This document shows, one piece after another, positions 1,109 through 58,656 of a DNA stretch of 59,370 nucleotides. The notes below the pieces were generated by a model that saw only the letters and a list, made by a program, of their open reading frames with translations, was not told the origin of the DNA and ran no database searches. Every line of letters starts with the position of its first letter. Positions within the stretch are counted from its first letter, which is position 1. Source of the stretch: a virus (taxonomy: Duplodnaviria > Caudoviricetes); IMG/VR virus record IMGVR_UViG_3300025872_000062, positions 1-59,370 of that record, one strand, 5' to 3'. A program made the position numbers and the translations under genes.

Positions 1109-1112
1109 CGCG

Positions 1113-2189: not shown

Positions 2190-2190
2190 T

Positions 2191-11481: not shown

Positions 11482-14400
11482 ATGCGACGAAGTAATCCTT
11501 CTACAAATTCGTTTGCTGATTACTTGCAACTTCTGCAAGACGATAATTTGCTGCTTACCAAACCAGGGCAGCAATTATTCTTCAACGTTCTATCAGAAGG
11601 TCGCAAAACTAATAAGATCTCTCAGGATCAGTACGATGCATTGGTTCAAGCTCAGAATCAACGCGTAAATCAGATCCTGAATACTCCACTTATTAATCCG
11701 GCTACTGGGCAACCTGCATATAAAGTTACGCAGCCAAGGCAAACGCAATATAGCAAAGCCACTGGTCAGCCTATGGAACCAACGTTGGTTCCTCAGACTG
11801 GTCGCGATTTGTTTTTTGGCGGAAGTCTTCGTGCTGAATATCCGTCAACTGCAATCATTGGTGCACGTCAGGAAGCTATTCGTCAACTTGGCGTAGAGCA
11901 GCAAAAAGAAGAGGATCGTATCAAGGGAATCCTCAATATCCTCCAGCCTGGCGCTACTGATATTGGTGGACGATTCCGTCTTGCTGCTGAACGCGCCAAG
12001 GGTGCCGTTAAAGGATTTCAAGCATCTGCTGGTATTCAGGGAGTTGCTCCGAAACAAACGCCTGAAGAGTTGGCAGCTCTATTCAACATGCCAGACCTTG
12101 CAGAAGTGCAACCTGAAGATGCTGGCAAATTGCTTCAGCAGGAAGGTGCTGCTTTTGGAGCATCGGTCCAACAAGCAATTGCCCCCACTGTTGGTGGCGG
12201 CATACTTGGTCGTGGTGCCGGTCCTATTTCGTCTGTATTCAATCTTGGAACGAAACGATGGGGACCAGCTGCAACTGCTGGAATCTCTGCTGCATTGTCA
12301 TTTATTGGCGCGTCTGGAACTAATGCGTTGATGGAGCGGCGTATGCGTTCAGTCTATGGTGACGACGTATACGAAAATCAAATCAAGCCAATACTTGGAA
12401 CATCCATGCTTGAAAACCCAGAAGCATATTTTGCTGGGCAGATAGCTACCATTCCATTGCAAGGTGGTTTGAATCTATCTTCTGGTATTGGAACACGGGC
12501 TGGATTTGGTACGCTGTTCAATGCAATTCGGAATCGACCTTCTACCATTATTGGAAGGGCATCAGATCTTGGCGCTAGTGCAAAGAAGCTATCCGATGCA
12601 GCAAATGCTGGTCAAATTTTGCAGAACACGCTAAATGCGCCGAATAAGTTTTCTGAATTTCAGACTGCATTTCTGCAAAAGATTGGGCAAGCATCCAAGG
12701 AATCTATTGATAGTTATGTTCAGTTCAAGCCTACTGGTGGACTTGGCGAACGCATTGGTCAATATTCAGCTCTTAGCCGCACAATGCCTGGCTTCGCTGA
12801 ATTCACTTCAGATATTGTTGGTGAACAAGCATCCAATCTTGGATTGGCTGCTTATGACTATATGGTGGAGTGGCGTAAATTCCAAAACGGAGAAACCGCT
12901 GAAGCACCATCAATCAAAGATGCTCTAGTAAATCTCGCACTTGGATCTTTGTTCATCAAGGATACGAAGTTCCAGAACATGATCTCCAATGTTGGAGGCG
13001 CAATCGGCGGTGCTGGACTAGCAGTAGGCAAGAAGATTCCTGGAGTATCTGCTGGAATTAATGCTCTTGAAAAGCGTTACTACCAAGGCAATGTTGGATT
13101 TGTAAATTCTCTTCTTGAACAACAATTTGAAGACATCAGCAAAGGAGTTATTCCTGCACCTGCCGGTGGCGTACGTTTCAAATCTGGTGGCGTAGCTCCT
13201 GGCGCTGGAGTTGAAGCTCGTGGATTGATTGGCGCGGAAGTTCCTATTTCTGTTGGTGGTGGAAAGATTGCAATCTACAATCCTGAAACCAAAGAAGTTC
13301 GCTATTCTAATTACAGCGACGTCTACAAAACATTTACTGAACCGACTAGCGCAGAAGCAAATCAACAAATTGCAGGTGCCATCTCTTCACTTCCAGTAGA
13401 ACGTATTGGCAAGGGAATTACAGGAAGGCTATCCGCATTTGGCGGAAGGGACGTTGTCAAGGGCGAAGGAGATAGCCGACAACAACTTGTTGGAGTTATC
13501 GGCAATCATGTCGTAGTACGAGAAAATCCTATTGGCGATGATGGAATTCGTTTGTCGCAACCGGAATACAGCGTTCTGCGCGTATCGGATCTTGAAGAAA
13601 ACAATCGATCCATTGCAGAACAAATGTTTGGTGAACTTGGCATAACTGCCTCGGACACTCCGTATAACTATAATCCCTCTAATCCGCGAACTGGTGCTCC
13701 GTCTCTTCAGGATATTAAAGTTGCACAAGACGATATCTTTAGGATTTTCAAGCCAAAAGGCAGCACAAAAGAAGCTTACAAAGCTATCAATGAATACTTT
13801 AAAAGCTATGTGTGGATTGATAGCAATACGCAACTGCGTGGTCGAGTAGTTGGACGCGCTGCAAATAATGACGCTATTGTCCAGCTGCTTGGATATGACA
13901 CTGCAATCATTCGTGTCAATCCCGTAAACCTTGAAAAAGGCGGAAAGCTAAGTGCGACTGCTCCTGGTGATGTTGTAAACCTTTCCAACATTATCTCGGA
14001 AGCAAATCTCTCCGAGGCGCAACGGCAATATCTTCAGGAGTATGACGATATTGCAGATACTCCGAATGCAGTTTTTGCAAGTAAGAATATAGACTCTCAG
14101 AATTTTGCTATTGCACTTACGCCTCAACAAGCCTCTGCGGCAAGGGCATTTTTTCCTGCACTGCAACAAGCGCAGTCCCGTATTGATCAAGCTCAAGATC
14201 CAGTCAAAATTGAACAAGACATCAAACAACTCAAGTCTAAATTCCGAAACAAGATTCTTGGCGTGTTGGCAAAAGCGGATTCCGAATTTGAACTGGGAAC
14301 TGTTATTGTCGCCGATACTGCGCGTGGGCGAGAAAATGGAATCGTTATTGACAATACCGATTTCGGTCCTGTTGTCGCATTTGAATCAACTGGATGGCGT

Positions 14401-17400
14401 GGAGTAATTGTTCAGCCTGGATCGATTGTGTCTGGGCAAAAAGTATCTCCATCTCTTCTTGACCAACAAGAACAACCATCTACCAAACCAAGCAAGCGCA
14501 AAGAGCCTAAGCAAAAGAAGCTGCCTAAGGTTCAAGAAGAACAGACTGTTTCTCAAGAACCTAAACTTGAGGAAGAAAAACCTGTTGTTAAAAAACGCAA
14601 GCAGGGAAAACAAGAACCTGTAATTGAAACTACGGAAGAAGAGACCAAGCCGACTGCTGTTTCAATTGGCGATTACAACGATATCGCAAGTAAGTTTGGA
14701 AATCATGTAACGACTCAAATGTCCGATGACCAACGCCGTGTTGCGTTGAGTCTTTCAGATTTTATTGAGGTTGTAGTCCGTGATCCAAACTCGCCTGATG
14801 AAGAAGCCGCAACGGTTGAGCGTATTCCTGTTTTCTATCAAGGGAAAAACCTCTATCATTCGGCTGTTCGCAAGATTGCGAATAGTCAATACAGTCGCCT
14901 TACCGATAGAGAGAAGGCATTGCTTGCTGCTCTTGGCGTTCCAGATTATAGGAATAAGGCCAATAAACTTTGGTGGAATGGACAATACCAACTTGTTCAA
15001 TTCCTTACCGATCCTCAACTTAAGAATATTGTAAACAAGCTTTTCGATGAGATGTCCGATCCTGGAAATTTGGATTTGGATATGCCCACCGTGCTTGTTG
15101 ATATCAATGAGCCACCAGCAACGGAAGCACCTTCTGTAATCCCGGCACCTCAAGAGAAACCTATTGAGGTTGAATCTCTTGCCCCTATTGTCGAAGAGCC
15201 TGTTGCGGTTCAGCCAGAACCGCTTCTTGATGAAGAAGAAGCGGCTATTGAACAGGACATTACTGCGCCTCCTGTTATTGATGAGACTGTAATTCCTCTC
15301 CCGCAGGAAGAAGAGCCTATTGTTCCGCAGATAGAAGCGCCTACGATTCTAGCATTGCCTACAAAGCCAGAGGTGGCAATCGAGGTAAAGCCTGAAGATA
15401 TACCTGCTCAACCTGATCCGATTATCGTTCCTGAAAATGCTCGGATAGATGAAGATCCGATCATTGATATTTCCGTATTGGAAAATCAGCGACTCGGAAC
15501 GATGCTTGTCAAAGACATCAATGTCGATGCAGGTCGATTCCAGTTCCGTGCACTATCTGGAACAGAGGGTGTTTCTGGAAGTACGGCTGATGCCCAGGCA
15601 TGGAATCGCGATCTTGCTGGTGTAGTTGCTGTATGGCGTGACCCAGCAAATAACAAAGTCTATATTGTCAATGGGCACAATCGGTTTGCCCTTGCCAAAC
15701 GATTTGGCGTCAAGGAACTCGATGTTGTGTTCCTTGATTCTGCGTCAGCGGAAGAGGCACTGTTCACAGGTGCCCTGATCAATATTGCTGGTGGGAATGC
15801 TACTCCCGTAGATGCTGCAAAAATATTCCGCATGCAGCCGCGCTCGAAAGAAACGCTGCGCCAGCTAGGTGTTTCCATGAATAGCAACCTTGTTCAGCAA
15901 GGCTTGTCTATCTCTCGTCTTCCGTATCAGGTATTTCAAGCTGCTATCAATGATTCGTTCGATAGTCCAAAGATGGCACTATACGCAGCCATTGCAGAAA
16001 ACCCAGATATGGACGAGCGTCGCATGGCGCTCCTCTGGGAAAAAGTGCGGACAAAAGAAGATGGAGTTCCGTCGACATTCAAATCTTCTGTCACTATTGA
16101 TGGTATTCGTGAACGAGTTCTTGATCTTATTGGTTCGGAGTTGGAGTTTGAAGAAGGTGCTCTTCCAGGTATGGAAGAGTTTGCCGCCTTTCGTTCTGCA
16201 TCCGATGAGTCAGTAGAACTGCGTGGAGCAATTCGTCGATATCTCACGCAAGAAAAGCAACTGCTGCAACGCCTTATTAAAGATCAAAACAAAGACATAC
16301 TCGATAGGGCTGGCAACAAACTAAATAACGATCAGAACCGCGCCATTGCTGAATCTAATGCGGATATTCTAAATGTCTGGTCTCAAATTGTAAGGCTTGA
16401 TAAGCAGTTCCGAGACTACATTGAAAGTCTTGCCAGCAATCTTCCTAAGGGTCAAATTAGCAAACAAGGGCTGGATGAGTTCGTTCGATCAAATAGTGAA
16501 TCAATCCGAAATCAGGTTCTCACTGCAAGAGAGCGTTTGCTCAATAGGGCTTCTGGAAATGTTGAAATTCCTACTACTCAAGAAGAACCCATTGCGCCTA
16601 CGGAAACAGTAGAAGATATATCGCTATTTGAACAGCCAGAAGAACCTGTTGCCGTTGAAGATGTTGTCGCTGAAGAACCTGTGCGTGAACGAATTGAAAA
16701 CACGCCGGTCATTCCAATATCGTTTGAAAAAGATGGAATAGAAGCGCTTCAATCTTCTAAAGATGGAATAGAAGCTCTTCAATCTGCTCTTGATAATTTG
16801 AACGAGCTTAAGACTCAATACCCATATGGGCTATATAAAGTTGATGAAGATGACACTTCGTATATGCGAAGTGATCTTGCTTGGTTTGATAGCAAATTTC
16901 TCGCAGATGATAGAGAGACCATTGAAAACGAAGGCACTTCTGTATATCTAGAATTTGTAGATACATACAATGAATTCCTAGCTGAAGATAGTGATATTGC
17001 ATCAGAGTATGAAATAGCTGGTGCTGCACTTGCTACTGTTATTCGGAAAACTTTTATCAATGGGTTTCCTGGCGAGGAGCCATTGAATATTGCAGTTCCT
17101 GAATACAACCAACTTGATCCATCTTTTTACAAAGATGATGAATCGTACATGCCGCTTGTTTGGCAACAAAAAGCATTTGCCAAGCGCAAAAATATAAAAA
17201 AGAAATATGAGTCTTTTATCAGAGACTGGGAAATAGAACTTGCAAATAGACTAGCGGATAGGTATTTGCCTGTCTTTGCAGATTCACTTGACATTGATAT
17301 CAGGACTGAACGACCTGCAGCACAAAAGCCAACTGAAATTGCACCAGAAGAGCAAATCTCTGAACCCAGTGTTGCTGTTGAGAATGCTCCTGAAATAGAA

Positions 17401-23400: not shown

Positions 23401-24942
23401 AAAGTATTCCATCAATCGATGGATGAGATGGTTCGCAGCCGACCTACATATCAATATGCAAAGTACCTAGGTCTTACACTTGCAGCTGCCAATCTTGATA
23501 ACGATCTTGATGAGCTTAGGCAGACGAATCCTTCTGCGACACTTCAGGATATTGATGAACTTGCTCCGTCCATCAATCAAGAGATCAACATCAAGTGGAT
23601 GCGTCATCTTCCTGGGCATGGGCAATCGCAAAGGATGTATTCCCTTGCCAAAGATGTAACCAAGATGACGGCATTCGATGCATTCGCAAGGCATCTTGTT
23701 GATTGCGGCTACAATCCGACTCCTATTTTTGAGACGGATAGCAACGGCGATGTCGTGATTGATGACAACGGAAGGCCAAAGATTCTAAATACTGCATGGA
23801 ATAGGGCCTTGCGCGATGTATCGTCGCTTATGAATGTTGCATCTGGAGACGTTCGGTTCTCGGATGATGCGGAACGAGATCGTCTTATGAACGAGGCTTA
23901 TAGTTATGCCTTGTTCAGCCCTCGATGGTGGGCAAGCCGAATGATGTTGGATAGGACAGGCCGAACTATCTTTGAGAACGTTTCCAATCTTGCTGGAGCA
24001 GTTGTTGGAAAGTCGGACTACGGCACAAACATCCTTAGGATGAACCGCCTGGATGAACGATCCATTCTTCGGCGGGATCCGCACGTAGGCGCTTACCACT
24101 GGAAGTTGATGTCTCAGGCATGGGGTCTACTTGCTGGCCTGTTCGCTCTTATCTATGGATCGCAAGCCCTGTATCCGCATACGATGGAAGTATCCGCTGA
24201 TAAATCTGGTACGCGTGTTCGTATTGGAGACTATACATTCCGCTCACCTGGTGCTATCAGTACACAGCTTGAATGGATGAATGCGGTATTCAATGGATTT
24301 ACCGAGTGGTCCGCGCGCAAGGGAACCGAAGGAGAACGCCCTCTGATCTCACTCGTGTGGGATAAGGTTGCTGGAAATCTTATGTCCCGATCCAGTCCAA
24401 TCGTTGGCTTTGTTAGTGAAGCTGTTACTGGTCGAGATGCTTTTGGTCAACCAGCTTTTATTCCTGACGAAGCTTTGAAGACTTTCGGAAATGAAGTCGT
24501 TGCTCCCGTGCTAAAGGGATTCGGAGTCAAGGGATTCTCTACACCAGATATGAATAGCGCGTTTACAAAGCGCTTTATGTGGTGGTGGCTGCATGACATC
24601 ATGGACTCCTACAAGATGATGCGAGATACAAATGTGGGTACTGCAGAAGCCCTTCTGAAATCTTCGCTCATGGGCGGATTCTCCTTCCTTGGAGGTCGTG
24701 TCCTATATGACCCGAAGGAACTCAGGGCTGCGCGCGAAGGGCAGGAGCGAATGGAAGGGCCAAGTCTATTGACCACCCTTCAGGGGAAGACATCGGGAAT
24801 GGATCTTCTATCTGGACGCCTGGAACTTGGCGGAGAAGATTGGAATGCTCCAGTACCTGCGTCTGACGAAGAACTGTGGCGGTCTGCACCGAGGCCGTAC
24901 ATGATTGGGTCGCCTCCAGAAGACTGGAGGGCTTGGTACTAA
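11482..24942 (+). CDS. Giant polyvalent internal virion protein (4486 aa) with ParB-like and zincin HExxH domains
   Basis: Uninterrupted 13.4-kb ORF; VAVWRD...YIVNGHNRF (ParB/Srx-like, about 15500-15850); TVLHEIAH...HEEFA (19237-19377); last gene of the virion operon. Confidence 0.8.
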   Translation: MRRSNPSTNSFADYLQLLQDDNLLLTKPGQQLFFNVLSEGRKTNKISQDQYDALVQAQNQRVNQILNTPLINPATGQPAYKVTQPRQTQYSKATGQPMEPTLVPQTGRDLFFGGSLRAEYPSTAIIGARQEAIRQLGVEQQKEEDRIKGILNILQPGATDIGGRFRLAAERAKGAVKGFQASAGIQGVAPKQTPEELAALFNMPDLAEVQPEDAGKLLQQEGAAFGASVQQAIAPTVGGGILGRGAGPISSVFNLGTKRWGPAATAGISAALSFIGASGTNALMERRMRSVYGDDVYENQIKPILGTSMLENPEAYFAGQIATIPLQGGLNLSSGIGTRAGFGTLFNAIRNRPSTIIGRASDLGASAKKLSDAANAGQILQNTLNAPNKFSEFQTAFLQKIGQASKESIDSYVQFKPTGGLGERIGQYSALSRTMPGFAEFTSDIVGEQASNLGLAAYDYMVEWRKFQNGETAEAPSIKDALVNLALGSLFIKDTKFQNMISNVGGAIGGAGLAVGKKIPGVSAGINALEKRYYQGNVGFVNSLLEQQFEDISKGVIPAPAGGVRFKSGGVAPGAGVEARGLIGAEVPISVGGGKIAIYNPETKEVRYSNYSDVYKTFTEPTSAEANQQIAGAISSLPVERIGKGITGRLSAFGGRDVVKGEGDSRQQLVGVIGNHVVVRENPIGDDGIRLSQPEYSVLRVSDLEENNRSIAEQMFGELGITASDTPYNYNPSNPRTGAPSLQDIKVAQDDIFRIFKPKGSTKEAYKAINEYFKSYVWIDSNTQLRGRVVGRAANNDAIVQLLGYDTAIIRVNPVNLEKGGKLSATAPGDVVNLSNIISEANLSEAQRQYLQEYDDIADTPNAVFASKNIDSQNFAIALTPQQASAARAFFPALQQAQSRIDQAQDPVKIEQDIKQLKSKFRNKILGVLAKADSEFELGTVIVADTARGRENGIVIDNTDFGPVVAFESTGWRGVIVQPGSIVSGQKVSPSLLDQQEQPSTKPSKRKEPKQKKLPKVQEEQTVSQEPKLEEEKPVVKKRKQGKQEPVIETTEEETKPTAVSIGDYNDIASKFGNHVTTQMSDDQRRVALSLSDFIEVVVRDPNSPDEEAATVERIPVFYQGKNLYHSAVRKIANSQYSRLTDREKALLAALGVPDYRNKANKLWWNGQYQLVQFLTDPQLKNIVNKLFDEMSDPGNLDLDMPTVLVDINEPPATEAPSVIPAPQEKPIEVESLAPIVEEPVAVQPEPLLDEEEAAIEQDITAPPVIDETVIPLPQEEEPIVPQIEAPTILALPTKPEVAIEVKPEDIPAQPDPIIVPENARIDEDPIIDISVLENQRLGTMLVKDINVDAGRFQFRALSGTEGVSGSTADAQAWNRDLAGVVAVWRDPANNKVYIVNGHNRFALAKRFGVKELDVVFLDSASAEEALFTGALINIAGGNATPVDAAKIFRMQPRSKETLRQLGVSMNSNLVQQGLSISRLPYQVFQAAINDSFDSPKMALYAAIAENPDMDERRMALLWEKVRTKEDGVPSTFKSSVTIDGIRERVLDLIGSELEFEEGALPGMEEFAAFRSASDESVELRGAIRRYLTQEKQLLQRLIKDQNKDILDRAGNKLNNDQNRAIAESNADILNVWSQIVRLDKQFRDYIESLASNLPKGQISKQGLDEFVRSNSESIRNQVLTARERLLNRASGNVEIPTTQEEPIAPTETVEDISLFEQPEEPVAVEDVVAEEPVRERIENTPVIPISFEKDGIEALQSSKDGIEALQSALDNLNELKTQYPYGLYKVDEDDTSYMRSDLAWFDSKFLADDRETIENEGTSVYLEFVDTYNEFLAEDSDIASEYEIAGAALATVIRKTFINGFPGEEPLNIAVPEYNQLDPSFYKDDESYMPLVWQQKAFAKRKNIKKKYESFIRDWEIELANRLADRYLPVFADSLDIDIRTERPAAQKPTEIAPEEQISEPSVAVENAPEIESIPPSKMEEIRSSVDGFISDIRESPTNVYTNKYGDPGQPKTVVYDIINYVDKTSVFESIKNHFGINGKFATKDEVIDVLKDILVGYLPRTDWRSDLQNTYSNLDPDYFSDFNYWNQIADQPELSRVFEKERRLGERKQLFDKFKNEFNYRTRLAQEDIAVEYLKEFPELPAIIGVQDADPYVVFGKDKSRILSELGFYKSTDEQVAYSILGNMFPWTQIDSGDYEKELATMSRSEIINSMAASIRNQLLSPENDVISSIEAEAYPDAIKLMVDDIVSDYSQLFFDNIPVLSSRDDLQSSPTEEEGQLGLFQFIMNGTDQPKTKIHINNPRLTLTEDEKQKLRESGFVVNNRIDAAAVALFASQESPVIAQEITITEMPSSGMLAQASVVSPRIDLKFNKLSIEAYRITDKATLKVNIARLLAVTQEGQKMSEDELNSAAENIANYMDMLGHSVVSRRLRAMADAAMLNVFGRRYMGGAQIFQTDREADFMSYDEFMARDLGPLYFQFKKKFNAIYGAATGKATSRLSSSQIFESTNPDIVRSRAAALAELAEEETEKFLRDKFPAIGHILNVSKPKDMLGTKGMHTTAIDPDTGRAVRFITAFHNSNIETVLHEIAHGWLEGLPYYAAHELATAMGKTLRIPSPTNTSIIPYEMHEEFAYGMMLSFANMDLGTFGESKGWIGTTSGRKMNESNPIYQQLLGISKYAREMYQNMQLTPNIFNSVYHLRFRPEGEGEAGTFSGTWRVFYQTEKKVKSKISSNGKQQYRTIKVPNNKLYLWRGAPIVWTDYSTGKPVSYEADILNDVGRTSNPSHYVQVRTYLTQDRLESESRIQTIQAGSIQYIGGTISGIPPAVQFTMSKWLAFNRGLLGVESSVPEQRKIARERIEEAAQGRISEEAQEAFKSRGVGEFYTKNQKINVIARNFGLPYLKSTALTAISKNISDQSVNKLWANRTTLMRQYADDPIATLQKNPELWSLHQAAISERIKYRLNQNAKEKPGLRQQALKTLADPKRLQRLTKSILRAHLGSIASKASVFQDMRRIFNPPTSGYPPQFEIMTDGFGAPTYSRKRKILGINDLRANKKPFFVNLDDGSVVGYPYIPPKSNLWKELDAEADSFIEDIENAKYSSRWSENSLNFNIPSIQLEFNGEMVEFGNTNIQQLNTLIYKQLQNSGITFDPQSSDISYYVNHPYYYIAGTLVSARPHQFARLKQEQFYDFQPNLQSNSDSDVTSQVEQIGNIDEAIPADLIDESNDFDGSEPLRNAIIADSGRSVPDYGYQQFTTERYANETQRSNVVSEQVFVETAQRGVDGVYQSAVRSLANGEPSEYKRKINWITNYAADVINGAFHSNEAAIDGSFYGSAVVNESKAHWVGSIKVGNTNMLSAIAKAAHVGRQLGQPNTFITADGSNLEYGFSNEGHAVVPAMDIRFTSPVDSIAAKQFANQYSDVVNGLEISDAGMSMKIFMVPDQQIGRSESNAWTSSAKTAVSEFFSPGQEARAGTTVSQVNPIRLKLWNLGSSELGGIGRFTEYERVLDIVQTNGIDEAIPSKEVEQQIRSKRMRDAFNKTFSNVFGKQFQISENVMFRRSNASFNVKSIIAEHRQEQPVDGTDVDKNVLFAYQKLIDQLKKQHKSIGITFEFSKQRTENGEPIRNASGVLQFADMYDGRQEVAAYDIRQNRHLFIHPVTEESFGIGVEEMQKHPLWAMSTIKDANGESMRWIDVLNGIQQAFNVSMHDANYQGEGESLGYIAHAMITEDPWAIWALANETIVTDAYVTSNIDRIGLNGEINFATNVTGDFQLHKLSLPPLEDILCGCNAVDDVIRGFAKTLRSDFDNYYGTSPILDPGMTGSGNAIESANGHILGFHSPNAEKAIIDPKFGTVTADFAEEDFGLIRNMTFVNVPNPTPSSVRNAVINPAPPAPNPNRTQTALKAARNSALFTNEIFKAGAAGDASPILMQNYILTVDNPAALAKQIKSLKRVFMNPNLGFEFKGKVYNADGMYGKKVFHQSMDEMVRSRPTYQYAKYLGLTLAAANLDNDLDELRQTNPSATLQDIDELAPSINQEINIKWMRHLPGHGQSQRMYSLAKDVTKMTAFDAFARHLVDCGYNPTPIFETDSNGDVVIDDNGRPKILNTAWNRALRDVSSLMNVASGDVRFSDDAERDRLMNEAYSYALFSPRWWASRMMLDRTGRTIFENVSNLAGAVVGKSDYGTNILRMNRLDERSILRRDPHVGAYHWKLMSQAWGLLAGLFALIYGSQALYPHTMEVSADKSGTRVRIGDYTFRSPGAISTQLEWMNAVFNGFTEWSARKGTEGERPLISLVWDKVAGNLMSRSSPIVGFVSEAVTGRDAFGQPAFIPDEALKTFGNEVVAPVLKGFGVKGFSTPDMNSAFTKRFMWWWLHDIMDSYKMMRDTNVGTAEALLKSSLMGGFSFLGGRVLYDPKELRAAREGQERMEGPSLLTTLQGKTSGMDLLSGRLELGGEDWNAPVPASDEELWRSAPRPYMIGSPPEDWRAWY
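16729..16788 (+). repeat. 30-bp in-frame tandem duplication (KDGIEALQSS/KDGIEALQSA)
   Basis: aaagatggaatagaagcgcttcaatcttct followed by aaagatggaatagaagctcttcaatctgct. Confidence 0.9.
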
Positions 24943-25004
24943 AAATAAAAGCCTCTTGCTTTTGGCAAGAGGCTTTTATCCGAAAGGACAACCCGGTAGG
25001 TTGG
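24941..25004 (-). ncRNA. Candidate anti-RBS small RNA (or 3'UTR-derived RNA)
   Basis: Possible extended -10 (TGgTAGTGT, 25011-25019, minus strand), then seed GGUUGUCCUUUCGG (24980-24993), then the terminator; the seed is complementary to early-gene RBSs. Confidence 0.4.
24945..24979. terminator. Bidirectional rho-independent terminator
   Basis: 15-bp perfect stem ATAAAAGCCTCTTGC/GCAAGAGGCTTTTAT with T-tracts on both strands, between convergent operons. Confidence 0.9.
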
Positions 25005-25030
25005 ATTAGTACACTACCAGATTGATCATA

Positions 25031-25276
25031 CTACTCCTGATCTTCTCCCGCATCTCCCTCTCTAAAAAATACGTTGTTATTTATGAGGAAGTAAGCATCC
25101 GTTATGTTGCTTACCTTCAGCGCTCGAAACGCCCTATACAACGCATCTTCCAGTGTCCTGGGCTTGATGCCAAGTGACTCTGCCGCAGATGATCTTGACC
25201 CGCACTCGATGACCGCCTTGATCAGAATGCGCTGGTAGTTTGATACACGGTTGCATCCACGTTGCATCTTAGGCAC
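25031..25276 (-). CDS. LuxR/sigma-region-4-type HTH protein
   Basis: SRSSAAESLGIKPRTLEDALYRAFRALKVSN. Confidence 0.75.
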   Translation of the reverse strand: MPKMQRGCNRVSNYQRILIKAVIECGSRSSAAESLGIKPRTLEDALYRAFRALKVSNITDAYFLINNNVFFREGDAGEDQE

Positions 25277-26062: not shown

Positions 26063-26910
26063 AGATCAGAGCCAGACACCTTTCGGAATACGTCAATGGC
26101 GCTGGTTGCAATGTCCTCCATGCTTCGTGATGGCTTGCCTTGCTGCTTGACAACCGGTGTTCCAGTCGTTGCGGCAGACCAGTGCTTCCACAATGCATGC
26201 ATGGTTACGATGTCTCGCTTTCCATTCCACTTTGTGACTAGGTTCCTTGCGGCATTCTCGACCGTCAGTGCGTCGATGCCCTTTGCATGCATCTGGTAGA
26301 CGATGTGCCTGACTCCAGTCCACTCTCCAATGGTGAAGTCAGATGGGTACAACTCTGGGTAGATCACAGACCGGTAAGCCTCGTAAATGGCACGGCCTGG
26401 GTCACCTTCCAGCGGCAGTTTTGGCAGAGTCCTTGGTCGTCCAACTACCGTTCTTTGTGGTTCTTGTTCAATATGACTCTTATTCAATGTAATGGGGGTG
26501 CTGTTTTTGACACCCTCGACAGTATCAGTTTTTGCACCCTCCTCCCCATCAGATTTTGTAGTGTCTGCGTCTGGGAACAGGATGTATCCATTGCTCGTCT
26601 GGCGACCGTTCTTGTCGTATCGATACTTCATCGATAGCACCTTCATGCCGTTGACTTCTGCGGAATCCAGCCCGTCAAGAGCACGACGAACTGTTGGTAC
26701 AGACAGCCCTGTTATCGTTGCGATAGCACCTATGCTGGGGAAGCAGTAACCATTTGAGTCCATGTGCATCGCAAGCGCAGTGAAGACCATCCACTCAGAG
26801 CTGGTGAACGTCTTCAAGTACGGCAAGATTGCGTGATGGAACTGGACATAGGTCGTCTGCCCTGCGTTCTTGTCAAGAGAGCGCATGCTCCCGTTGAAAA
26901 TTGAGATCAT
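26059..26910 (-). CDS. Phage replication initiator (N-terminal winged HTH, lambda O-like layout) (283 aa)
   Basis: GYCFPSIGAIATITGLSVPTVRRALDGL...GRQTSNGYIL; internal DNA repeats after the HTH; ATGA overlap with the upstream gene. Confidence 0.8.
   Translation of the reverse strand: MISIFNGSMRSLDKNAGQTTYVQFHHAILPYLKTFTSSEWMVFTALAMHMDSNGYCFPSIGAIATITGLSVPTVRRALDGLDSAEVNGMKVLSMKYRYDKNGRQTSNGYILFPDADTTKSDGEEGAKTDTVEGVKNSTPITLNKSHIEQEPQRTVVGRPRTLPKLPLEGDPGRAIYEAYRSVIYPELYPSDFTIGEWTGVRHIVYQMHAKGIDALTVENAARNLVTKWNGKRDIVTMHALWKHWSAATTGTPVVKQQGKPSRSMEDIATSAIDVFRKVSGSDL
26496..26539. other. Iteron-like pair inside the initiator gene (probable origin)
   Basis: Two quasi-palindromic 20-mers GGGTGCTGTTTTTGACACCC and CAGTATCAGTTTTTGCACCC at a 24-bp period, next to an AT-richer tract. 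Confidence 0.6.
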
Positions 26911-31834: not shown

Positions 31835-31888
31835 GGTTGTCCTTCCAGAAAACAGATGGCCCCCGGCCAGAAACCGGAGGCCAATACT

Positions 31889-31920: not shown

Positions 31921-32619
31921 TTACTTGAGTTCACCGCACCAATCAACGAACCCGGTCTCGGTGCGGAGTTCCTTCGGGCAGTTGGCATCGATGTACTCGA
32001 TGATGTCTGCCAGATCGCGGCGCGCTTCCGTATTGAGCAGGGCCACCTTCGGAGAGCCGAGTATCAGCCATTGAAACGAGGTGCCCGGGTGCACCCGGTC
32101 CTTGATATACCCGTCGATTGCGTCCTGCCACCACGGTTCTGGGTGGCAATTGGTGCACTTCCCCCGGCTGTTGTATGGGTTGCGGCAGATCTTGCAGCGA
32201 AGTCCTTTGAGTTGTCCGATGAGGCGCTCCATCGCCACGTCGTCGTAGTACCAAGATGTGATGCGCGGGTCTACCGCGCCTTCGTGCCGCATGACGGGCG
32301 TGAGGATGGTTTCAGAGACAAGGCTGTACCACACCATATGTGTGCCGAACTCTTCGACGATCACCGCCGCGTCTTGCTGCGCGTCCGCAGGGAATCCGAT
32401 GGGTGTCCGTCCCTGCGAGAACGCATCGAAGAGCGATTCCAGCAGAAGTCCGATCTGGGAATACTTCAGCGCAACGACCGCGCCGGTGATCGGCGTGATT
32501 GGGTGATTGATGATGCGCGTACCGGAGATACCGGAATACTTGCCTTCGCGCAGCCAGATCTGCCTCAGCGCACCGAGGAATCCGACTGCCATCTCGTTGT
32601 TCGGGTAGTTCGTCTTCAT
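31921..32619 (-). CDS. Hypothetical protein (232 aa) with a central CxxC...CxxC and a C-terminal domain similar to 31511-31834
   Basis: Start placed after hairpin R1 and GAAGGACAGAC RBS. Confidence 0.7.
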   Translation of the reverse strand: MKTNYPNNEMAVGFLGALRQIWLREGKYSGISGTRIINHPITPITGAVVALKYSQIGLLLESLFDAFSQGRTPIGFPADAQQDAAVIVEEFGTHMVWYSLVSETILTPVMRHEGAVDPRITSWYYDDVAMERLIGQLKGLRCKICRNPYNSRGKCTNCHPEPWWQDAIDGYIKDRVHPGTSFQWLILGSPKVALLNTEARRDLADIIEYIDANCPKELRTETGFVDWCGELK

Positions 32620-32640
32620 GTCTGTCCTTCCATGTTCGCT

Positions 32641-32667
32641 GGGGCCGGGTTTGCACCCGGCCCCGAT
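32641..32667. repeat. Intergenic hairpin repeat R1 (family A)
   Basis: GGGGCCGGGTTTGCACCCGGCCCCGAT. Confidence 0.9.
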
Positions 32668-32672
32668 CTGTT

Positions 32673-33029
32673 TCAATCCGATTCCAGTTGCCGATCCCGC
32701 TCCAGATCGATCCGCATCGCCTCGTCCATGCCGGCATCGACGTACCGCTCCACGCTGAGGCTGTAATCGGCGATCACGTCCGTGTCATTGCCCCAGACGA
32801 GCATGATCTGGCCGATTTCGCGCTCGGTCTGCGGGCCGTCGAAGATTACGACCCACTCCTCATCGCACTGGAACAAGTGCGGCTCCAACGTCGCCCAGTC
32901 CGTGGCGATGACCTCGGGATTGTCGCCGGGTTCGTACATGACGGCGACCGCGCGTCCGTCGGCGAATGCCGCCTCGGCCACTGCTTTCACAACGCGCATC
33001 TCCGCGCGCTTCCGATCCTGGATGTCCAT
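32673..33029 (-). CDS. Acidic hypothetical protein (118 aa)
   Basis: GAAAGGAG RBS; IGQIMLVWGNDTDVIADYS. Confidence 0.75.
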   Translation of the reverse strand: MDIQDRKRAEMRVVKAVAEAAFADGRAVAVMYEPGDNPEVIATDWATLEPHLFQCDEEWVVIFDGPQTEREIGQIMLVWGNDTDVIADYSLSVERYVDAGMDEAMRIDLERDRQLESD

Positions 33030-33056
33030 ACTTTCTCCTTTCGGGGGAACCTTGGG

Positions 33057-33497
33057 CTAATCGACGATCAGCGGCTGGCCGCTGACCGTCATCCACATTG
33101 CTCCATCATGGAGCACGTGCTCCACTCTCACGTTGTCCTGATCGTGCCAGTACTGCTCGATGGTGTAGTCGTCGAGCACGTTGGCGACGCGCTCAAGTAG
33201 ATCGCGCAGGTATTCGGCGAGCATTCGGTTGGCCTCCTCCCGCGTCTCCACAAGGTCCACTTCGCCGTCAATGTACAACGCGATCTCGTCCCCTATCATG
33301 GACGAGCGGACCAGTGTCCACCCATTGGACACGGTTTTGTCGACGGCGTTGTCGTCCTGCTTGATCAGTTGCATCTGGCTGACATCCACGGCGCGCAGGG
33401 CGGCCTCCGTCATGTCGTCGATTTCATCCATCGGCCCCCGTAGCGTTATTACATGGCTGTAGAGCCGTTGCAGATAGATGGTCCGCTTCGTGATCAT
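33057..33497 (-). CDS. Hypothetical protein (146 aa)
   Basis: Start after hairpin R2 and AAGGACAACC RBS. Confidence 0.7.
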   Translation of the reverse strand: MITKRTIYLQRLYSHVITLRGPMDEIDDMTEAALRAVDVSQMQLIKQDDNAVDKTVSNGWTLVRSSMIGDEIALYIDGEVDLVETREEANRMLAEYLRDLLERVANVLDDYTIEQYWHDQDNVRVEHVLHDGAMWMTVSGQPLIVD

Positions 33498-33524
33498 GGT
33501 TGTCCTTGTCCTTTCGAGATAGGT

Positions 33525-33545
33525 GGGCCGGGTTTGCACCCGGCC
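33525..33545. repeat. Intergenic hairpin repeat R2 (family A)
   Basis: GGGCCGGGTTTGCACCCGGCC. Confidence 0.9.
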
Positions 33546-33549
33546 TCGG

Positions 33550-33891
33550 TCAGTTGCGCTCGGTATCGGCCGCCTCAAGCGCCTCCGCGATTGCTTGGGC
33601 CGTTGCGGCTGCGCGCGCCTCTCTGTCCCACGCGACCCGTTGCAGGGCGAGACGGGCGCGGGATCGCCCCGCCTCCGTCCTCGCCTTGCCGATGCGGTCA
33701 TGCGCCGCATCCACCGCGTCGAGGTCGAGCCGCGCCGCAAGCGATGCGGCTGCCGGGTGCTCCCCGGCGAGGTCGACAACAGCAGCGCGCAGCAACGCAA
33801 TGCCGTGCTCCGAAGATGAATCGGAGTTTGCCCAGTCCCCCACGCGCCCAAGGGCGCGTGCGACTGCAAGATAATGTTGTGATATGTCCAT
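33550..33891 (-). CDS. Ala-rich hypothetical protein (113 aa)
   Basis: Fills the gap between the acidic peptide gene and R2; weak RBS. Confidence 0.55.
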   Translation of the reverse strand: MDISQHYLAVARALGRVGDWANSDSSSEHGIALLRAAVVDLAGEHPAAASLAARLDLDAVDAAHDRIGKARTEAGRSRARLALQRVAWDREARAAATAQAIAEALEAADTERN

Positions 33892-33937
33892 TTGTTGGTG
33901 CCTTTGCCGGTGTATCGCCCCGCCGGCAGGGCATCGG

Positions 33938-34123
33938 TCACTCGCGCTCCCGGTCGTCGGCGTCGTCGCCGAATTCCTCGGCGAACGCCTCTTCGGCCTC
34001 GGCCTCGGGATCATCGATCCACGAAAGGCCGTCGGTCTCGTCCTCGAGCGCGCCGTATCGATCCTCGTAGGCGATCTCGGCAGTGTCGATCCACACGGCC
34101 AGGCGGTCGAGTATTGTGCTCAC
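33938..34123 (-). CDS. Hyper-acidic micropeptide A (61 aa)
   Basis: 23 of 61 residues D/E; GTGA overlap with the upstream gene and GGAGG RBS. Confidence 0.7.
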   Translation of the reverse strand: MSTILDRLAVWIDTAEIAYEDRYGALEDETDGLSWIDDPEAEAEEAFAEEFGDDADDRERE

Positions 34124-34434
34124 GCCAATCCCCTCCGCTTGGCTTCCCTGTCAAGCATGTCGAGCGCCTTCAGGCCGTGGCCGTCGCCGCGCGCGATCAT
34201 GGTTGGTCTGTCCCAACCAAACGGCTGGTATCCGTCGTGGTAGGTCATCGCATCCCAGATGCGATTGTAGACGTGCGCCAACTCCTTATCGGTCATGAGG
34301 CGGAGGATTGCCTCGGTCGCGCTGGGGGCCTGCGTGTAGCGGCCCCATCGCATGTATCGGCGCTCCGCCGGGGTCATGCATGCATCCGGCATGTGCGCGT
34401 GCGCTTCGCGCGCACGCTTTTCTCGTTTCGGCAT
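34120..34434 (-). CDS. Hypothetical protein (104 aa)
   Basis: GAAGGGACAAACC RBS-like motif; DGYQPFGWDRPTM. Confidence 0.6.
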   Translation of the reverse strand: MPKREKRAREAHAHMPDACMTPAERRYMRWGRYTQAPSATEAILRLMTDKELAHVYNRIWDAMTYHDGYQPFGWDRPTMIARGDGHGLKALDMLDREAKRRGLA

Positions 34435-34496
34435 CGATGGTTTGTCCCTTCGGGGCGCTGGGTGCACCCGCTCACACTATACCGTCAAGTGCGCGC

Positions 34497-34529
34497 AAAA
34501 GAAAAGGGCCGGGGGTTTTCCCCCGGCCC
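34497..34529 (-). terminator. Rho-independent terminator
   Basis: Minus strand GGGCCGGGGG-AAAA-CCCCCGGCCC-TTTTCTTTT. Confidence 0.85.
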
Positions 34530-34547
34530 GTGTTGTCCGTGTCTGGC

Positions 34548-34751
34548 TTACTGCTTTGCGGCGATGTATCCGTCGAGCCATGCTCCGGCTCGAGCTAGGC
34601 CCAGTTCGCGCCCGATAGGGTTGCCGGTGCCGTCTTCGATGCGCTCGAACCAATACCGGGTCACTCCGTCGCCCGGGCGACCGAGGATGACGCGCAACCC
34701 CATTGCCTCCGCGCGCGCCTCGATCTCCTTACGGGTCCACTTACCGGCCAT
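34548..34751 (-). CDS. Hypothetical protein (67 aa)
   Basis: GAGGAG RBS; PGDGVTRY...AWLDGY. Confidence 0.7.
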   Translation of the reverse strand: MAGKWTRKEIEARAEAMGLRVILGRPGDGVTRYWFERIEDGTGNPIGRELGLARAGAWLDGYIAAKQ

Positions 34752-34983
34752 TGTCTGTCTCCTCCTCATGCGTGCACCCGTGCGCGTGGCACCGGTCTGC
34801 GTAGATCATGCGCGCGGCGTCCGTCTCCGGCCCGCGCGCGATCCGCCCGGGGCGGTATCCCATCTGCTCGATGCGGCCAATGGTGCGGTACTCATCCGAC
34901 CATTGACCTGCGTGGTGGTGCGCGGCCCACCAATACCGGGCATCGAGCACGTCCCACCGCGTGTAATCGTGTCCTGCGGTCAC
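34741..34983 (-). CDS. Hypothetical protein (80 aa)
   Basis: GAAAGGA RBS after R3; YWWAAHHHAGQWSDEY. Confidence 0.7.
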   Translation of the reverse strand: MTAGHDYTRWDVLDARYWWAAHHHAGQWSDEYRTIGRIEQMGYRPGRIARGPETDAARMIYADRCHAHGCTHEEETDNGR

Positions 34984-35008
34984 TGTCTGCTATCCTTTCG
35001 TGGTCGTT

Positions 35009-35037
35009 GGGGCCGGGATTGCACCCGGCCCCGATGG
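35009..35037. repeat. Intergenic hairpin repeat R3 (family A)
   Basis: GGGGCCGGGATTGCACCCGGCCCCGATGG, identical to R4 over 29 bp. Confidence 0.95.
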
Positions 35038-35039
35038 TC

Positions 35040-35291
35040 TCAGCGCTGGGCGATGATGATGTCATCGCCCTCGGCGCGCGCGATCCAGTCGCCGCCCTCG
35101 CCAAGTAGCGCCATTATACCGGAAGCCGGGATGGTGGGCGCCAGCGCGCACGCGAGCCGGAACGCGGCGCGCGCATCTTGGGCGCGCGCGGTCTGCCATC
35201 GTTCGCGGATCACGGGGAGGATTGCCGCCGGTACGATCCACGCGGGTTTGTCGGCGGTGCCCGCCGTGATTCGGTAGGTGGTTGGTTGCAT
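35040..35291 (-). CDS. Hypothetical protein (83 aa)
   Basis: Exactly fills the R4-R3 interval; GAAAGGACAG RBS. Confidence 0.7.
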   Translation of the reverse strand: MQPTTYRITAGTADKPAWIVPAAILPVIRERWQTARAQDARAAFRLACALAPTIPASGIMALLGEGGDWIARAEGDDIIIAQR

Positions 35292-35315
35292 TGGGTCTGT
35301 CCTTTCATGGTTGCC

Positions 35316-35344
35316 GGGGCCGGGATTGCACCCGGCCCCGATGG
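35316..35344. repeat. Intergenic hairpin repeat R4 (family A)
   Basis: Identical to R3 over 29 bp. Confidence 0.95.
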
Positions 35345-35347
35345 GGT

Positions 35348-35896
35348 CTAGAGGATGCCGCGCTCGCGCATCGAGGAGACTTCGGGAATGAAACCTTCGC
35401 GTCGCGCTCCGATGATGACATGGTCGAGCACCGGGATACCGATGATGTCGCCGCACTCGCGCAGGCGCTTGGTGACTTGGATGTCTTCGGGCGACGGCGC
35501 GGGGTCGCCGCTGGGGTGATTGTGCGCGACCACAATGGCCGCCGCGTTGGCAGCGATGGCCGGCCGGAACACGCTCCGTGGGTGGATGATTGCGCTGTTG
35601 AGGTCGCCCCTCGAGACGATCTCCGCGCGCAACAGTCTGTTGCGCGTGTCGACCGAGAGCACTGCGAACTGCTCGCACGGGTCGCCGGCCATGCCGGCCA
35701 GATAGGTGGCAACGTCCTGCGGCGCGCGCAACACGGGCGCGGATGCCGGGGCCGCGCACCATGTCGGCAGGAAGGTCGCCTCCACGCGCGCGCGCTCTGC
35801 GCGGAGCGCTCGCGCGACCAATGCCGATATGCTCGGCCGGATGCGGCGCGCGCCCTTGCGCGCGTTGGTCTGCGGGGTCTGCGTGGGTGTCTGCAT
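35348..35896 (-). CDS. radC: RadC-like JAB domain protein (182 aa)
   Basis: EQFAVL...IHPRSVFRPAI...AHNHPSGDPAPSPEDI...VLDHVII. Confidence 0.93.
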   Translation of the reverse strand: MQTPTQTPQTNARKGARRIRPSISALVARALRAERARVEATFLPTWCAAPASAPVLRAPQDVATYLAGMAGDPCEQFAVLSVDTRNRLLRAEIVSRGDLNSAIIHPRSVFRPAIAANAAAIVVAHNHPSGDPAPSPEDIQVTKRLRECGDIIGIPVLDHVIIGARREGFIPEVSSMRERGIL

Positions 35897-35912
35897 GGTT
35901 GTCTCCGTTCCT

Positions 35913-35946
35913 GGGGTCGGGGCCGGGGCGGGTGCGCCGCCCCGGC
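35913..35946. repeat. Intergenic hairpin / G-tract repeat R5 (family B)
   Basis: GGGGTCGGGGCCGGGGCGGGTGCGCCGCCCCGGC. Confidence 0.85.
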
Positions 35947-35954
35947 GGTGGGTG

Positions 35955-36119
35955 CTACTCGGCGTCGCCGTCGCCGTCGCCGTCGCGCGCGTCGTCGTCG
36001 TCGAGGTCGTCGGCGTCGTCTTCGCGCGGGTCGAGGTCGTCGTACCAGTCGTCGAGCGGGTCGAGGTCGACGTAACCGCTGATGCGGTCTTCAAAAGCCA
36101 TATCTACCGGGTCGCCCAT
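35955..36119 (-). CDS. Hyper-acidic micropeptide B (54 aa; absent from the ORF track)
   Basis: MGDPVDMAFEDRISGYVDLDPLDDWYDDLDPREDDADDLDDDDARDGDGDGDAE; AGGAGG RBS; exactly fills the R6-R5 interval. Confidence 0.75.
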   Translation of the reverse strand: MGDPVDMAFEDRISGYVDLDPLDDWYDDLDPREDDADDLDDDDARDGDGDGDAE

Positions 36120-36134
36120 GTCGGGCCTCCTGTC

Positions 36135-36187
36135 TTCGGGGGTCGGGGCCGGGGCGGGGGAGCGCCCCGGCTGGGGGTTACGGGCGG
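36135..36187. repeat. Intergenic repeat R6 (family B)
   Basis: 52/53 identical to 36583-36635. Confidence 0.95.
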
Positions 36188-36573
36188 AACAGGCGCTTGG
36201 TCAAACGGTCGGCGAACCTGTCCGCCAAACGGTCCGCCAGTGCGTCGAGGTCGAGCGCCGCCGCCACCGCGTCGAGGTCGAGCGCCGCCGCGAGTTGGTC
36301 GAGGTCGAGCGCTCCGCTGAGGTCCTGCATGTCGACATGCTCCGCTACGGTTTCGATGCTGAGCAGGTCGGCGATTTCGGCGGCAACGCGTTCGCGCTCC
36401 CGGACGGTCGCAACGTATCCCTGAGTCGCGAGACTCAGCCACAGGCTGCGGAGGTCGACGGGGGCAAGGGCGCCGACAATTGCCGGCGCTATCTCGGGGG
36501 CCATTCGGGTCGCAGCTGCGGCTACCAGTAGGTCGGTCGCCCGTGCGACCTGCTCATCGTTCTGTGTCTGCAT
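36178..36573 (-). CDS. Hypothetical protein with ALDLDxxAA repeats (131 aa)
   Basis: GAAAGGACAACC RBS; three 9-aa repeats followed by ADRL/F repeats. Confidence 0.75.
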   Translation of the reverse strand: MQTQNDEQVARATDLLVAAAATRMAPEIAPAIVGALAPVDLRSLWLSLATQGYVATVRERERVAAEIADLLSIETVAEHVDMQDLSGALDLDQLAAALDLDAVAAALDLDALADRLADRFADRLTKRLFRP

Positions 36574-36582
36574 GGTTGTCCT

Positions 36583-36635
36583 TTCGGGGGTCGGGGCCGG
36601 GGCGGGGGAGCGCCCCGGCGGGGGGTTACGGGCGG
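36583..36635. repeat. Intergenic repeat R7 (family B)
   Basis: 52/53 identical to 36135-36187. Confidence 0.95.
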
Positions 36636-36895
36636 GTCGTCGAGGAGCGGCGCAGGTTGGCCGCATCGAGTCGGGCAAGGCGCAACTGGCGCTCAGTTCC
36701 GTCGAGTCGGGCCGACATTGCGGCGGCGGAGCGCCGATAGGCATCGGCGCAGGTTTCGGCGTGTTCGGCGCGGCGCTCGGCGCGGCGCTGGGCGCGGTGG
36801 GCGTTGCGGAGGGCGTGGCACGCCACTCCGGCGACAAGGATGGACAGAGCGCTGAGGGCCGTCAAGGCGGCCGGGACGGCGGTCACTAGGGTCAT
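36626..36895 (-). CDS. Membrane-anchored coiled-coil protein (89 aa), first gene of the early array
   Basis: Hydrophobic N-terminus; GGAG RBS. Confidence 0.6.
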   Translation of the reverse strand: MTLVTAVPAALTALSALSILVAGVACHALRNAHRAQRRAERRAEHAETCADAYRRSAAAMSARLDGTERQLRLARLDAANLRRSSTTRP

Positions 36896-37412
36896 GATTG
36901 GTTGCTCCACAGGAGGGTCAAGCGGTCGCCCGATTGCGACCGTTGCTAGGTTCGCCCGCCCGCGCGGGGATACCTGCAAGGGCGGGGGATTATTTTCGGG
37001 GGCGGGGTCGGGGTCGAGGTCGGGCACTTTGTCGCCCCATGGGGGGCGGAGGAGCATGTACCTGGGATTCGTCGGGCGGGGGATTCGCCGGGTCGCGGGC
37101 GTTGCCCAGTCCCTGGCGCTTTTGCCTCCCAGTGCGGAGCGCCGGGCGGAGCGTCGAGCACGTCGAGCACGTCGAGCGGCTGAGCATGCCGCCACACCGG
37201 GCGTCGGGGCGGAGCGGCGACCGGGCCGCCAAGTCGAGCAAACCAGCGGCGCCGCTACGGGCCCTTGGGGCCCCTTCCAAGTCATGATTCTTGTCCAGCG
37301 GAGGCTGTGCCCCACACCCCTATGGCAATCCCCAGCCCCTCCAGCGGAGGCTGGCTTGTCCCCGAAGCGCATCCTCACAACCTAATCATCATTTTCTCCC
37401 GAAGAAGAAACC
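36896..37412. other. GC-rich, repeat-dense, probably non-coding region (possible genome end or control region)
   Basis: GTCGAGCAC tandem (37153-37177), TCCAGCGGAGGCTG twice (37294, 37340), GGGCGGGGGATT twice, G-tracts; abrupt GC drop near 37380. Confidence 0.5.
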
Positions 37413-41236: not shown

Positions 41237-41325
41237 GCGGATGGGTGGTGCCAATAACTCATTCGCGAAATAGGTTCTCCACTCGGAAATATGCCCCATG
41301 TAAATGCACATGGGGCATATTTTTT
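41237..41325 (+). ncRNA. Candidate stand-alone small RNA (about 89 nt)
   Basis: Predicted start coincides with a 10-bp stem (41237-41266), then a single-stranded linker, then a 15-bp terminator stem (41287-41322) with U-tail; no convincing ORF. Confidence 0.55.
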
Positions 41326-41388
41326 GGTTTCCTCCATAGTTCGCGCCTCATTGCGCGATGATGGTGCTTTCGATACGGCGTCGTATCG

Positions 41389-58392: not shown

Positions 58393-58656
58393 ATGGCGTC
58401 CTCGATTACGCTTGTGCAACGGATTGATGCTCCAGACGGTAGCATCACGTTCAAATTCAGCGACAAAAGCGGTATCGGTTTCCAAAGCGAGGCTGATCTG
58501 ATTAGTTATCAGGCCAATGCGGAATCGAATGTCGTGTCAATTGACGATTTGAAGCGGTACTTGATCTGCTGGTCTGGCCGCAATGGCCGGAAGGTAAACA
58601 AGACGGCGACGTACGACATCACGAACAACGCCGGAAACATCGTCAGGATACAGTAA
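58393..58656 (+). CDS. Hypothetical protein (87 aa)
   Basis: Abuts both neighbours; its last 49 nt are repeated at positions 1-49. Confidence 0.7.
   Translation: MASSITLVQRIDAPDGSITFKFSDKSGIGFQSEADLISYQANAESNVVSIDDLKRYLICWSGRNGRKVNKTATYDITNNAGNIVRIQ

Follow-up and report, generated by a model that had tools for sequence, protein, structure and literature searches.

A candidate anti-ribosome-binding-site element in the 3′ tail of a replication operon of a freshwater phage

Phages shut off their early genes through proteins, such as RegB and RegA of T4, or through antisense RNAs with a single target, such as c4, sar and OOP. In T7, the 3′ end of the gene 1.1/1.2 mRNA pairs with a ribosome-binding site (RBS) until it is removed by RNase III. 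A comparable arrangement can be proposed for the IMG/VR virus record IMGVR_UViG_3300025872_000062 (Duplodnaviria; Caudoviricetes), which was analysed over its full length of 59,370 nucleotides (nt) and is called the window hereafter. Here, a short spacer separates a giant late gene from a small helix-turn-helix (HTH) gene, the last of the early/replication operon, and its minus strand carries a sequence, termed the seed, that is complementary to the RBSs of some early genes. The reading that we favour, still tentatively, is that this spacer forms a regulatory 3′ untranslated region (3′UTR) at the end of the replication-operon mRNA, and that the anti-RBS sequence within it would mask a small number of early genes at their extended RBS. 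It would resemble the T7 case in that translation is lowered by an mRNA 3′ end that complements an RBS, and would differ from it in that the T7 pairing occurs in cis and is relieved by processing.

Among the described systems, judged by those parts of the published accounts that were available to us, the closest design is that of the icaR 3′UTR of Staphylococcus aureus, where a short anti-Shine-Dalgarno (anti-SD) motif pairs with the Shine-Dalgarno (SD) sequence, blocks initiation and creates a substrate for RNase III (PMC3868564). However, icaR acts on its own mRNA, whereas in the phage spacer the RBS of the element's own gene is a poor partner and the best partners lie kilobases away; icaR is also a cell system, while the present case belongs to a phage known from sequence alone. 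Closest among phages, within the same limits, is the c4 antisense RNA of P1 and P7, which comes from its target's operon family, pairs around the RBS and stops translation (PMC12197685). It has a single target operon (icd-ant) and two complementary segments borne on loops, whereas here several genes carry the RBS tag and the complement lies between a hairpin and a terminator. T4 likewise shuts off genes via their initiation regions, with RegB cutting GGAG in the SD sequences of early mRNAs and RegA occluding the starts of about 30 mRNAs (PMC3014915, as far as the available part goes), but its agents are proteins, while the one proposed here is an RNA that would pair with an extended RBS tag. 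The non-coding RNAs of Pseudomonas phage PAK_P3 have no start site of their own, are processed from the upstream gene's 3′UTR and accumulate during infection (PMC10914365); the available part of that report describes no RBS-complementary seed or target set for them, and the RNA considered here is a prediction from sequence. A full-text literature search that covered listings and a few passages turned up no phage RNA directed against a shared RBS of the phage's own early genes.

The seed, GGUUGUCCUUUCGG, was first noticed in an initial annotation made from the letters of the window, and the observation as a whole is confirmed, with the motif reading 24993..24980 as claimed. All ten pairings proposed there are correct letter for letter, G-U pairs included, and each target lies 0–10 nt before an in-frame start (the principal targets are given in Table 1). 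The 14-mer has two exact copies in the window, at 24980 (+) and 36574 (−). With up to three mismatches allowed it has nine matches, five of them on the minus strand at 31.8–36.6 kb and all five at gene starts; nine is a weak excess over the 4.4 ± 2.2 expected window-wide, as 4 of 100 shuffles reach it. The RBS module said to be shared by early genes is real. Its family form is GAAAGGA(C)A, and GAAAGGA itself has 12 copies in the window, six of which are at early-gene RBSs. These RBSs are carried by hairpin-plus-RBS cassettes that are repeated at least seven times in 32.6–36.6 kb. The best target precedes the gene starting at 36573, whose 131-aa product is an ORFan with no family match.

Table 1. 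Coordinates of the spacer elements, the flanking genes and the principal predicted RBS targets in the window. MFE, minimum free energy; ORF, open reading frame.
Feature	Position	Strand	Remarks
Giant late (virion-type) gene, 4486 aa	11482..24942	+	From the ORF list; stop abuts the shared terminator
Convergent spacer, 88 nt	24943-25030		Separates giant gene (+) from HTH gene (−)
Intrinsic terminator	24943..24981	−	17-pair stem, 5-nt loop, then U run; inverted repeat 15/15
Anti-RBS seed GGUUGUCCUUUCGG	24980..24993 (read 24993..24980)	−	Exact reverse complement of 36574-36587
5′ hairpin of the 3′UTR	24987..25027	−	11 continuous pairs plus 4 more; in MFE and centroid folds
Small HTH protein, last gene of the early/replication operon	25031..25276	−	Start GTG 25276 or ATG 25267
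Target RBS CUGGAAGGACAACC	31835..31848	−	Before ATG 31834; 14 pairs, two of them G-U; duplex −23.4 kcal/mol
Target RBS UCGAAAGGACAAGGACAACC	33498..33517	−	Before ATG 33497; two overlapping matches of 10-11 nt; duplex −18.1 kcal/mol
Target RBS CCGAAGGGACAA	34442..34453	−	Before ATG 34434; 12 pairs, one of them G-U; duplex −22.2 kcal/mol
Best target, RBS module CCGAAAGGACAACC	36574..36587	−	Directly 5′ of ATG 36573 (131-aa ORFan); duplex −26.3 kcal/mol

In the window, the pairing exceeds that of a generic anti-SD core. The mean duplex energy with the seed is −14.3 kcal/mol for 27 early/middle starts and −8.25 kcal/mol for 36 others (Mann-Whitney p = 8e-7; both lists were curated by hand, and the second takes the start of the longest ORF, so that its SD pairing may be underestimated). 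Targets shuffled with their composition kept yield −9.3 ± 0.5 kcal/mol. When the core UCCUUUC was kept and its flanks were randomised, one of 1000 seeds equalled the real seed, and the real flanks rank first among 21 arrangements of the same composition, also with gene 36573 left out. Nowhere on the early strand except in the spacer does an antisense match to any of the 27 early/middle start regions reach 12 nt; 11-nt matches occur at five other early-strand places, about the number expected by chance. This uniqueness of the 14/14 match, and the advantage of the real flanks over 999 of 1000 randomised sets, speak against a plainer explanation, namely that the hairpins serve termination or 3′ stability and that the likeness to an RBS arose by chance or as a by-product of purine-rich stems at the stop codon. 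We consider that explanation somewhat unlikely, yet it has several points in its favour.

One of these is the strength of both hairpins in the spacer. The minus-strand RNA has the order 5′ hairpin, open CUUUC joint and 17-pair terminator, and the 3′ arm of the hairpin contains GGGUUGUC, part of the seed. A 96-nt fold of this RNA has an energy of −39.8 kcal/mol, compared with −17.4 ± 3.3 kcal/mol for shuffles (z = −6.85), and none of 200 shuffles is as stable, which bears out the claim of a strong terminator next to the seed. The built-in terminator scan did not call it, probably because the stem runs into the U run; by our own scan of both strands it also reads on the plus strand, where it would serve the giant gene. 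The 5′ hairpin is specific to the minus strand, since two of its G-U pairs become A-C mismatches on the other strand, and it is absent from the plus-strand fold. Because of these G-U pairs, and because it lies upstream of the terminator of that strand, the element is assigned to the minus-strand RNA. It is placed between the HTH stop codon (25031-25033) and the terminator, shares the operon terminator and has no promoter called. Rfam gave no matches in the whole window, c4 included; at 24850-25150, its best sub-threshold match (26.3 bits, where the gathering score is 54) is to an unrelated family.

Two further features of the RNA deserve mention here. A 7-codon mini-frame, AUG...UAA, lies at 25006-25029 (−), one base past the HTH stop and 4 nt after AGGAG, over the 5′ arm of the hairpin, and its translation would be predicted to free the seed-bearing arm. 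A second unit of the same design occurs at 41237-41326 (+), where a hairpin, an open linker with UCUCC and a 12-pair terminator with U run follow another terminator and a TTGCAT/TATATT pair.

Five related loci were compared, of which L003, L007 and L017 form one lineage (G1) and L004 and L015 stand apart. They were found by alignment-based scans, with L007 coming from one metagenome scan and L015 from one genome scan; wider HTH alignments returned the same three IMG/VR contigs only. The closest relative in protein searches (P0002/P0023, 84% and 72% identical) is not among them. The giant gene converges on the small HTH gene in 5/5 loci, and the HTH orthologues that L003, L004 and L015 have in this position are 49–57% identical to the window's (56% for L003). 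In G1, an 86-nt spacer contains a hairpin that begins at the stop codon, followed by GUCCUCCUAUC, a linker and a terminator, which in L003 is called on the early strand only. Its anti-RBS, CUCCUAU, is the complement of ATAGGAG, the RBS flavour of that lineage and a different one from the window's. Of the 15 copies of ATAGGAG in G001, 13 are RBSs, one is inside the giant gene and one is the antisense copy in the spacer; L017 has eight at RBSs, one other and the spacer copy. By arithmetic, an 86-nt spacer would hold a named 7-mer on a named strand by chance with a probability of ∼0.005; there was one success in three lineages tested.

Between L003 and L017, the spacer is identical at 74/85 positions (87%), compared with 149/214 (70%) for the HTH gene and 90/134 (67%) for the end of the giant gene, and a 35-nt block of hairpin and anti-RBS differs once, in its loop. 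The presence of an RBS flavour of its own at the same spot in this second lineage argues against hairpins that merely terminate or stabilise the mRNA, as does the invariance of the anti-RBS arm against uncompensated variation in UAGGNGG, with which it pairs intramolecularly at the stop codon. On the other side, the sole compensatory change (C-G to U-A, L003 against L017) falls in the terminator stem, the G1 anti-SD pairs with the stop-codon sequence UAGG(N)GG as the outer stem, and two lineages manage without the element altogether. With regard to covariation of seed and RBS, the G1 lineage has a flavour of its own for both at the same place, and L004 and L015 have no such element.

A few observations in relatives stand by themselves. 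An alternative hairpin with the anti-SD in its loop was rejected, as it can be formed by CCAAG...CUUGG in the G1 lineage and only in a three-pair version in the window. The last 41 nt of the HTH gene (15922-15962 (−) in L003) are 85–100% identical among L003, L007 and L017, against 70% elsewhere in the gene, and hold three segments, GGAG..CUCC..GGAG, with two pairing options; the conservation is partly due to the FSRKEMQ protein tail. At 14040-14110 (−) of L013, which corresponds to ∼34040-34110 of G002, UUCUCCUG lies 8 nt ahead of a 12-pair terminator, just past a gene ending CUCCUCCU...CCUAUCUUAG. This further 3′ end in the relative G002 resembles the G1 spacer motif, a likeness that is not significant alone.

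The initial annotation left two origins open for the RNA, a promoter of its own or cleavage from the 3′ end of the replication operon. The extended −10 that it pointed to, TGgTAGTGT, is present, but it matches 3/6 consensus positions, has no −35 and forms part of the 5′ arm of a strong hairpin, and scans for sigma-70-type promoters call none in either the window or L003. An independent small-RNA gene reaching from ∼25004 to the terminator would have one advantage, as so short an RNA leaves UCCUUUC fully open at an opening cost of 0.36 kcal/mol. Nothing comparable is kept in the G1 lineage, however, where this stretch is coding, and we regard such a gene as highly improbable. Since there is no sign of a separate promoter, only the 3′ end of the replication operon still stands as the source, and the regulator would not be a small-RNA gene in its own right.

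A different possibility is that the tail acts in cis, in the style of icaR, pairing with SD or SD-like sites of its own mRNA and so tuning the HTH gene or folding the 3′ end. Besides the published precedent in the available account of icaR (PMC3868564), the G1 lineage lends this idea something, as its anti-SD has a 7-nt match (AGGAGGA) to the RBS of the HTH gene itself, 250 nt upstream, and also matches the stop-codon sequence AUAGG(A)GG. In the window, however, the HTH start region is a poor partner (−7.7 kcal/mol, rank 24/27), and the best partners are 6.8–11.6 kb upstream, past strong internal terminators at 31857-31883 and 34506-34529. We accordingly think action in cis unlikely.

The motif might also be a leftover at the DNA level, that is, an inverted or orphaned hairpin-RBS cassette remaining after gene loss or recombination behind the giant gene. 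Its plus-strand layout, hairpin followed by RBS module, is indeed that of the cassettes repeated in the early region, and L003 and L007 each have a 4-codon frame (GTG...TAA) after the plus-strand motif. But the GTG of this mini-frame is lost in L017, and in the window the motif lies past the plus-strand terminator. As annotated, no plus-strand start follows it there, the next codons being CGG TAG and the nearest TTG (25001) opening a 2-codon frame. No gene lies between the giant gene and the HTH gene in L003, L007, L017, L004 or L015, so that a loss would be old and a relic should have decayed; instead, the motif is perfect in the window and is better conserved than the flanking genes in G1. 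A relic RBS thus gains no support from relatives, and a leftover seems quite unlikely. A mini-ORF on the plus strand was rejected as well, as the window has none and L017 has lost the GTG. The same applies to a plus-strand ORF of 51 aa (TTG 25022) that would use the motif as an RBS split across the hairpin: its start is inside the stem, it runs antisense to the HTH gene and it has no counterpart in L003.

Several results weigh against a regulatory role for the tail. In addition to the way in which the start lists were drawn up, the early start regions are high in G+C, which favours a G-rich seed, and arithmetic puts the genome-wide chance expectation at ∼0.05 antisense 14-mers matching any of the 27 starts, for a case that was picked after the fact. 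No promoter was found in either lineage. The element is missing from two of four lineages, with a spacer in L004 of 35 nt that holds a terminator only and one in L015 of 4 nt. L015 has GAAAGGA(C) at seven RBSs and no antisense copy in the 32.6 kb examined, and G002 has a near-identical CCCC-SD-ACAACC module (TGACCCCCAAGGAGACAACC) and no anti-RBS in its spacer; the module must then be conserved for reasons other than the tail RNA. Most of the G1 anti-SD pairs with the stop-codon region (P(unpaired) ≤0.02 for most bases in L007), and the 10-mer antisense match is one of ∼13 such places in G001, unexceptional by its length. The energy test beyond the generic core is not significant there either, as 115 and 208 of 1000 random-flank seeds were as good. 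The enrichment beyond generic anti-SD pairing that would be expected of a dedicated regulator is therefore present in the window and not significant in G1, and the replication in that lineage rests mainly on the named-7-mer argument and on conservation. These G1 results would also suit an element that serves the 3′ end alone.

The RBS module and its flanks are nearly alike in two lineages, reading CGACCCCCGAAAGGACAACC-ATG in the window (36583-36587 with flanks) and TGACCCCCAAGGAGACAACCATC-ATG in G002 (∼26385-26410, −), whose giant proteins are only ∼40% identical. The module might also be a promoter or leader element.

Accessibility limits the proposed regulation further. The open core of the seed, UCCUUUC (24982-24988), has a per-base accessibility of 0.36–0.97, whereas GGUUG, the complement of the ACAACC spacer of the targets, is paired in all folds of three RNA lengths (P(unpaired) 0.00–0.07). 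Specificity beyond the generic anti-SD core depends on this buried GGUUG, and opening all 14 seed nt costs 11.3 kcal/mol. After opening, the 14-pair duplex with the start region of gene 36573 amounts to −24.3 + 11.3 + 2.7 kcal/mol, a net of about −10, while a 9-nt match nets about −5 and a 7-nt match about −3 kcal/mol. On account of the paired GGUUG, the opening cost and these short-match energies of −3 to −5 kcal/mol, silencing of the whole early gene set, as the annotation had it, is too wide a claim, and some 3–5 genes with extended matches are credible. The likely targets, judged from predicted pairing, are the genes with the extended module, 36573, 31834, 34434 and perhaps 33497; those with the 7–9 nt core alone would hardly be affected. 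The interpretation first put forward is thus partly supported.

With this narrower set of targets, the mechanism that we favour can be outlined. The spacer would form the untranslated 3′ end of the minus-strand early/replication operon mRNA, and the active agent could be this mRNA tail as a whole or else a stable 3′ fragment shielded by the two hairpins. Its open UCCUUUC may nucleate on the SD core of early mRNAs, and on targets with CC...ACAACC flanks the duplex would zip into the hairpin arm to give 12–14 pairs. Such a duplex would hide the RBS and would probably give a double-strand nuclease access to the mRNA. As the RNA would be made from the replication operon, it should accumulate after the early genes and damp them, forming a delayed negative loop.

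A broader proposal, which we put forward as doubtful, is that this freshwater phage family times its early genes by an RNA 'anti-tag', the tail of the replication operon pairing with a private RBS extension of selected genes, and that tag and anti-tag have changed together between lineages. The pairs seen so far are GAAAGGAC with GUCCUUUC and AUAGGAGG with CCUCCUAU, from the only two element-bearing lineages available. On this proposal, genes could join or leave the shut-off set by gain or loss of the RBS module on the hairpin-plus-RBS cassettes. If true, this would be an RNA counterpart of the protein early-gene switch, acting on a set of genes via a shared RBS tag. It would also explain the unusually long and uniform RBS modules of some phage gene sets, and would make temporal classes in uncultured phages predictable from their sequence by a simple rule.

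The IMG/VR record is rated complete and the virus is present in many freshwater metagenomes; the list of runs that contain it includes no RNA run. No close relatives were found among GenBank phages, by DNA or by protein, and single-protein scans of IMG/VR returned no relatives. Four read runs (DNA contigs) contain the same strain at low depth; X8, X13 and X15 show no differences in the covered part of the spacer, and X18 has no coverage of it. The plus strand encodes late genes (terminase, portal and major head protein) and the 4486-aa giant protein, which is without a Pfam match and has homologues of 4249–5586 aa in a protein search. The minus-strand block (38.3–25.0 kb) contains small ORFans within an island of 62–67% G+C, together with one RadC-like gene, and further on a Mu Gam-like protein, a replication initiator and, last, the small HTH gene. 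Matches of the HTH protein to Sigma70_r4_2 and HTH_8 are weak and under the Pfam cut-offs; a protein search gave 49 homologues.

L015 is a 61-kb contig carrying the giant gene and the HTH gene that was binned in a metagenome-assembled genome labelled uncultured Armatimonadia, a possible hint at the host of this phage family. Among 400 other genomes of that phylum there were only three weak HTH matches (E-values 1.3e-6 to 9.3e-4), none of them with the C-terminal part of the giant protein. The island at 32000-38000 of the window has 62–67% G+C compared with 40–52% in the rest of the genome, and within it are the small early ORFans and the hairpin-plus-RBS repeats, whose families of 31–53 nt reach up to 98% identity. 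Its appearance suggests a separate origin, or gene conversion acting on the block. At the left end (1-3177) there are three tandem paralogous genes of 352, 358 and 328 aa, with a related open frame at the right end (58608-59370). Positions 1-300 and 58608-58907 are 93% identical, which indicates that the record is probably circularly permuted, or else that the paralogue family spans its ends.

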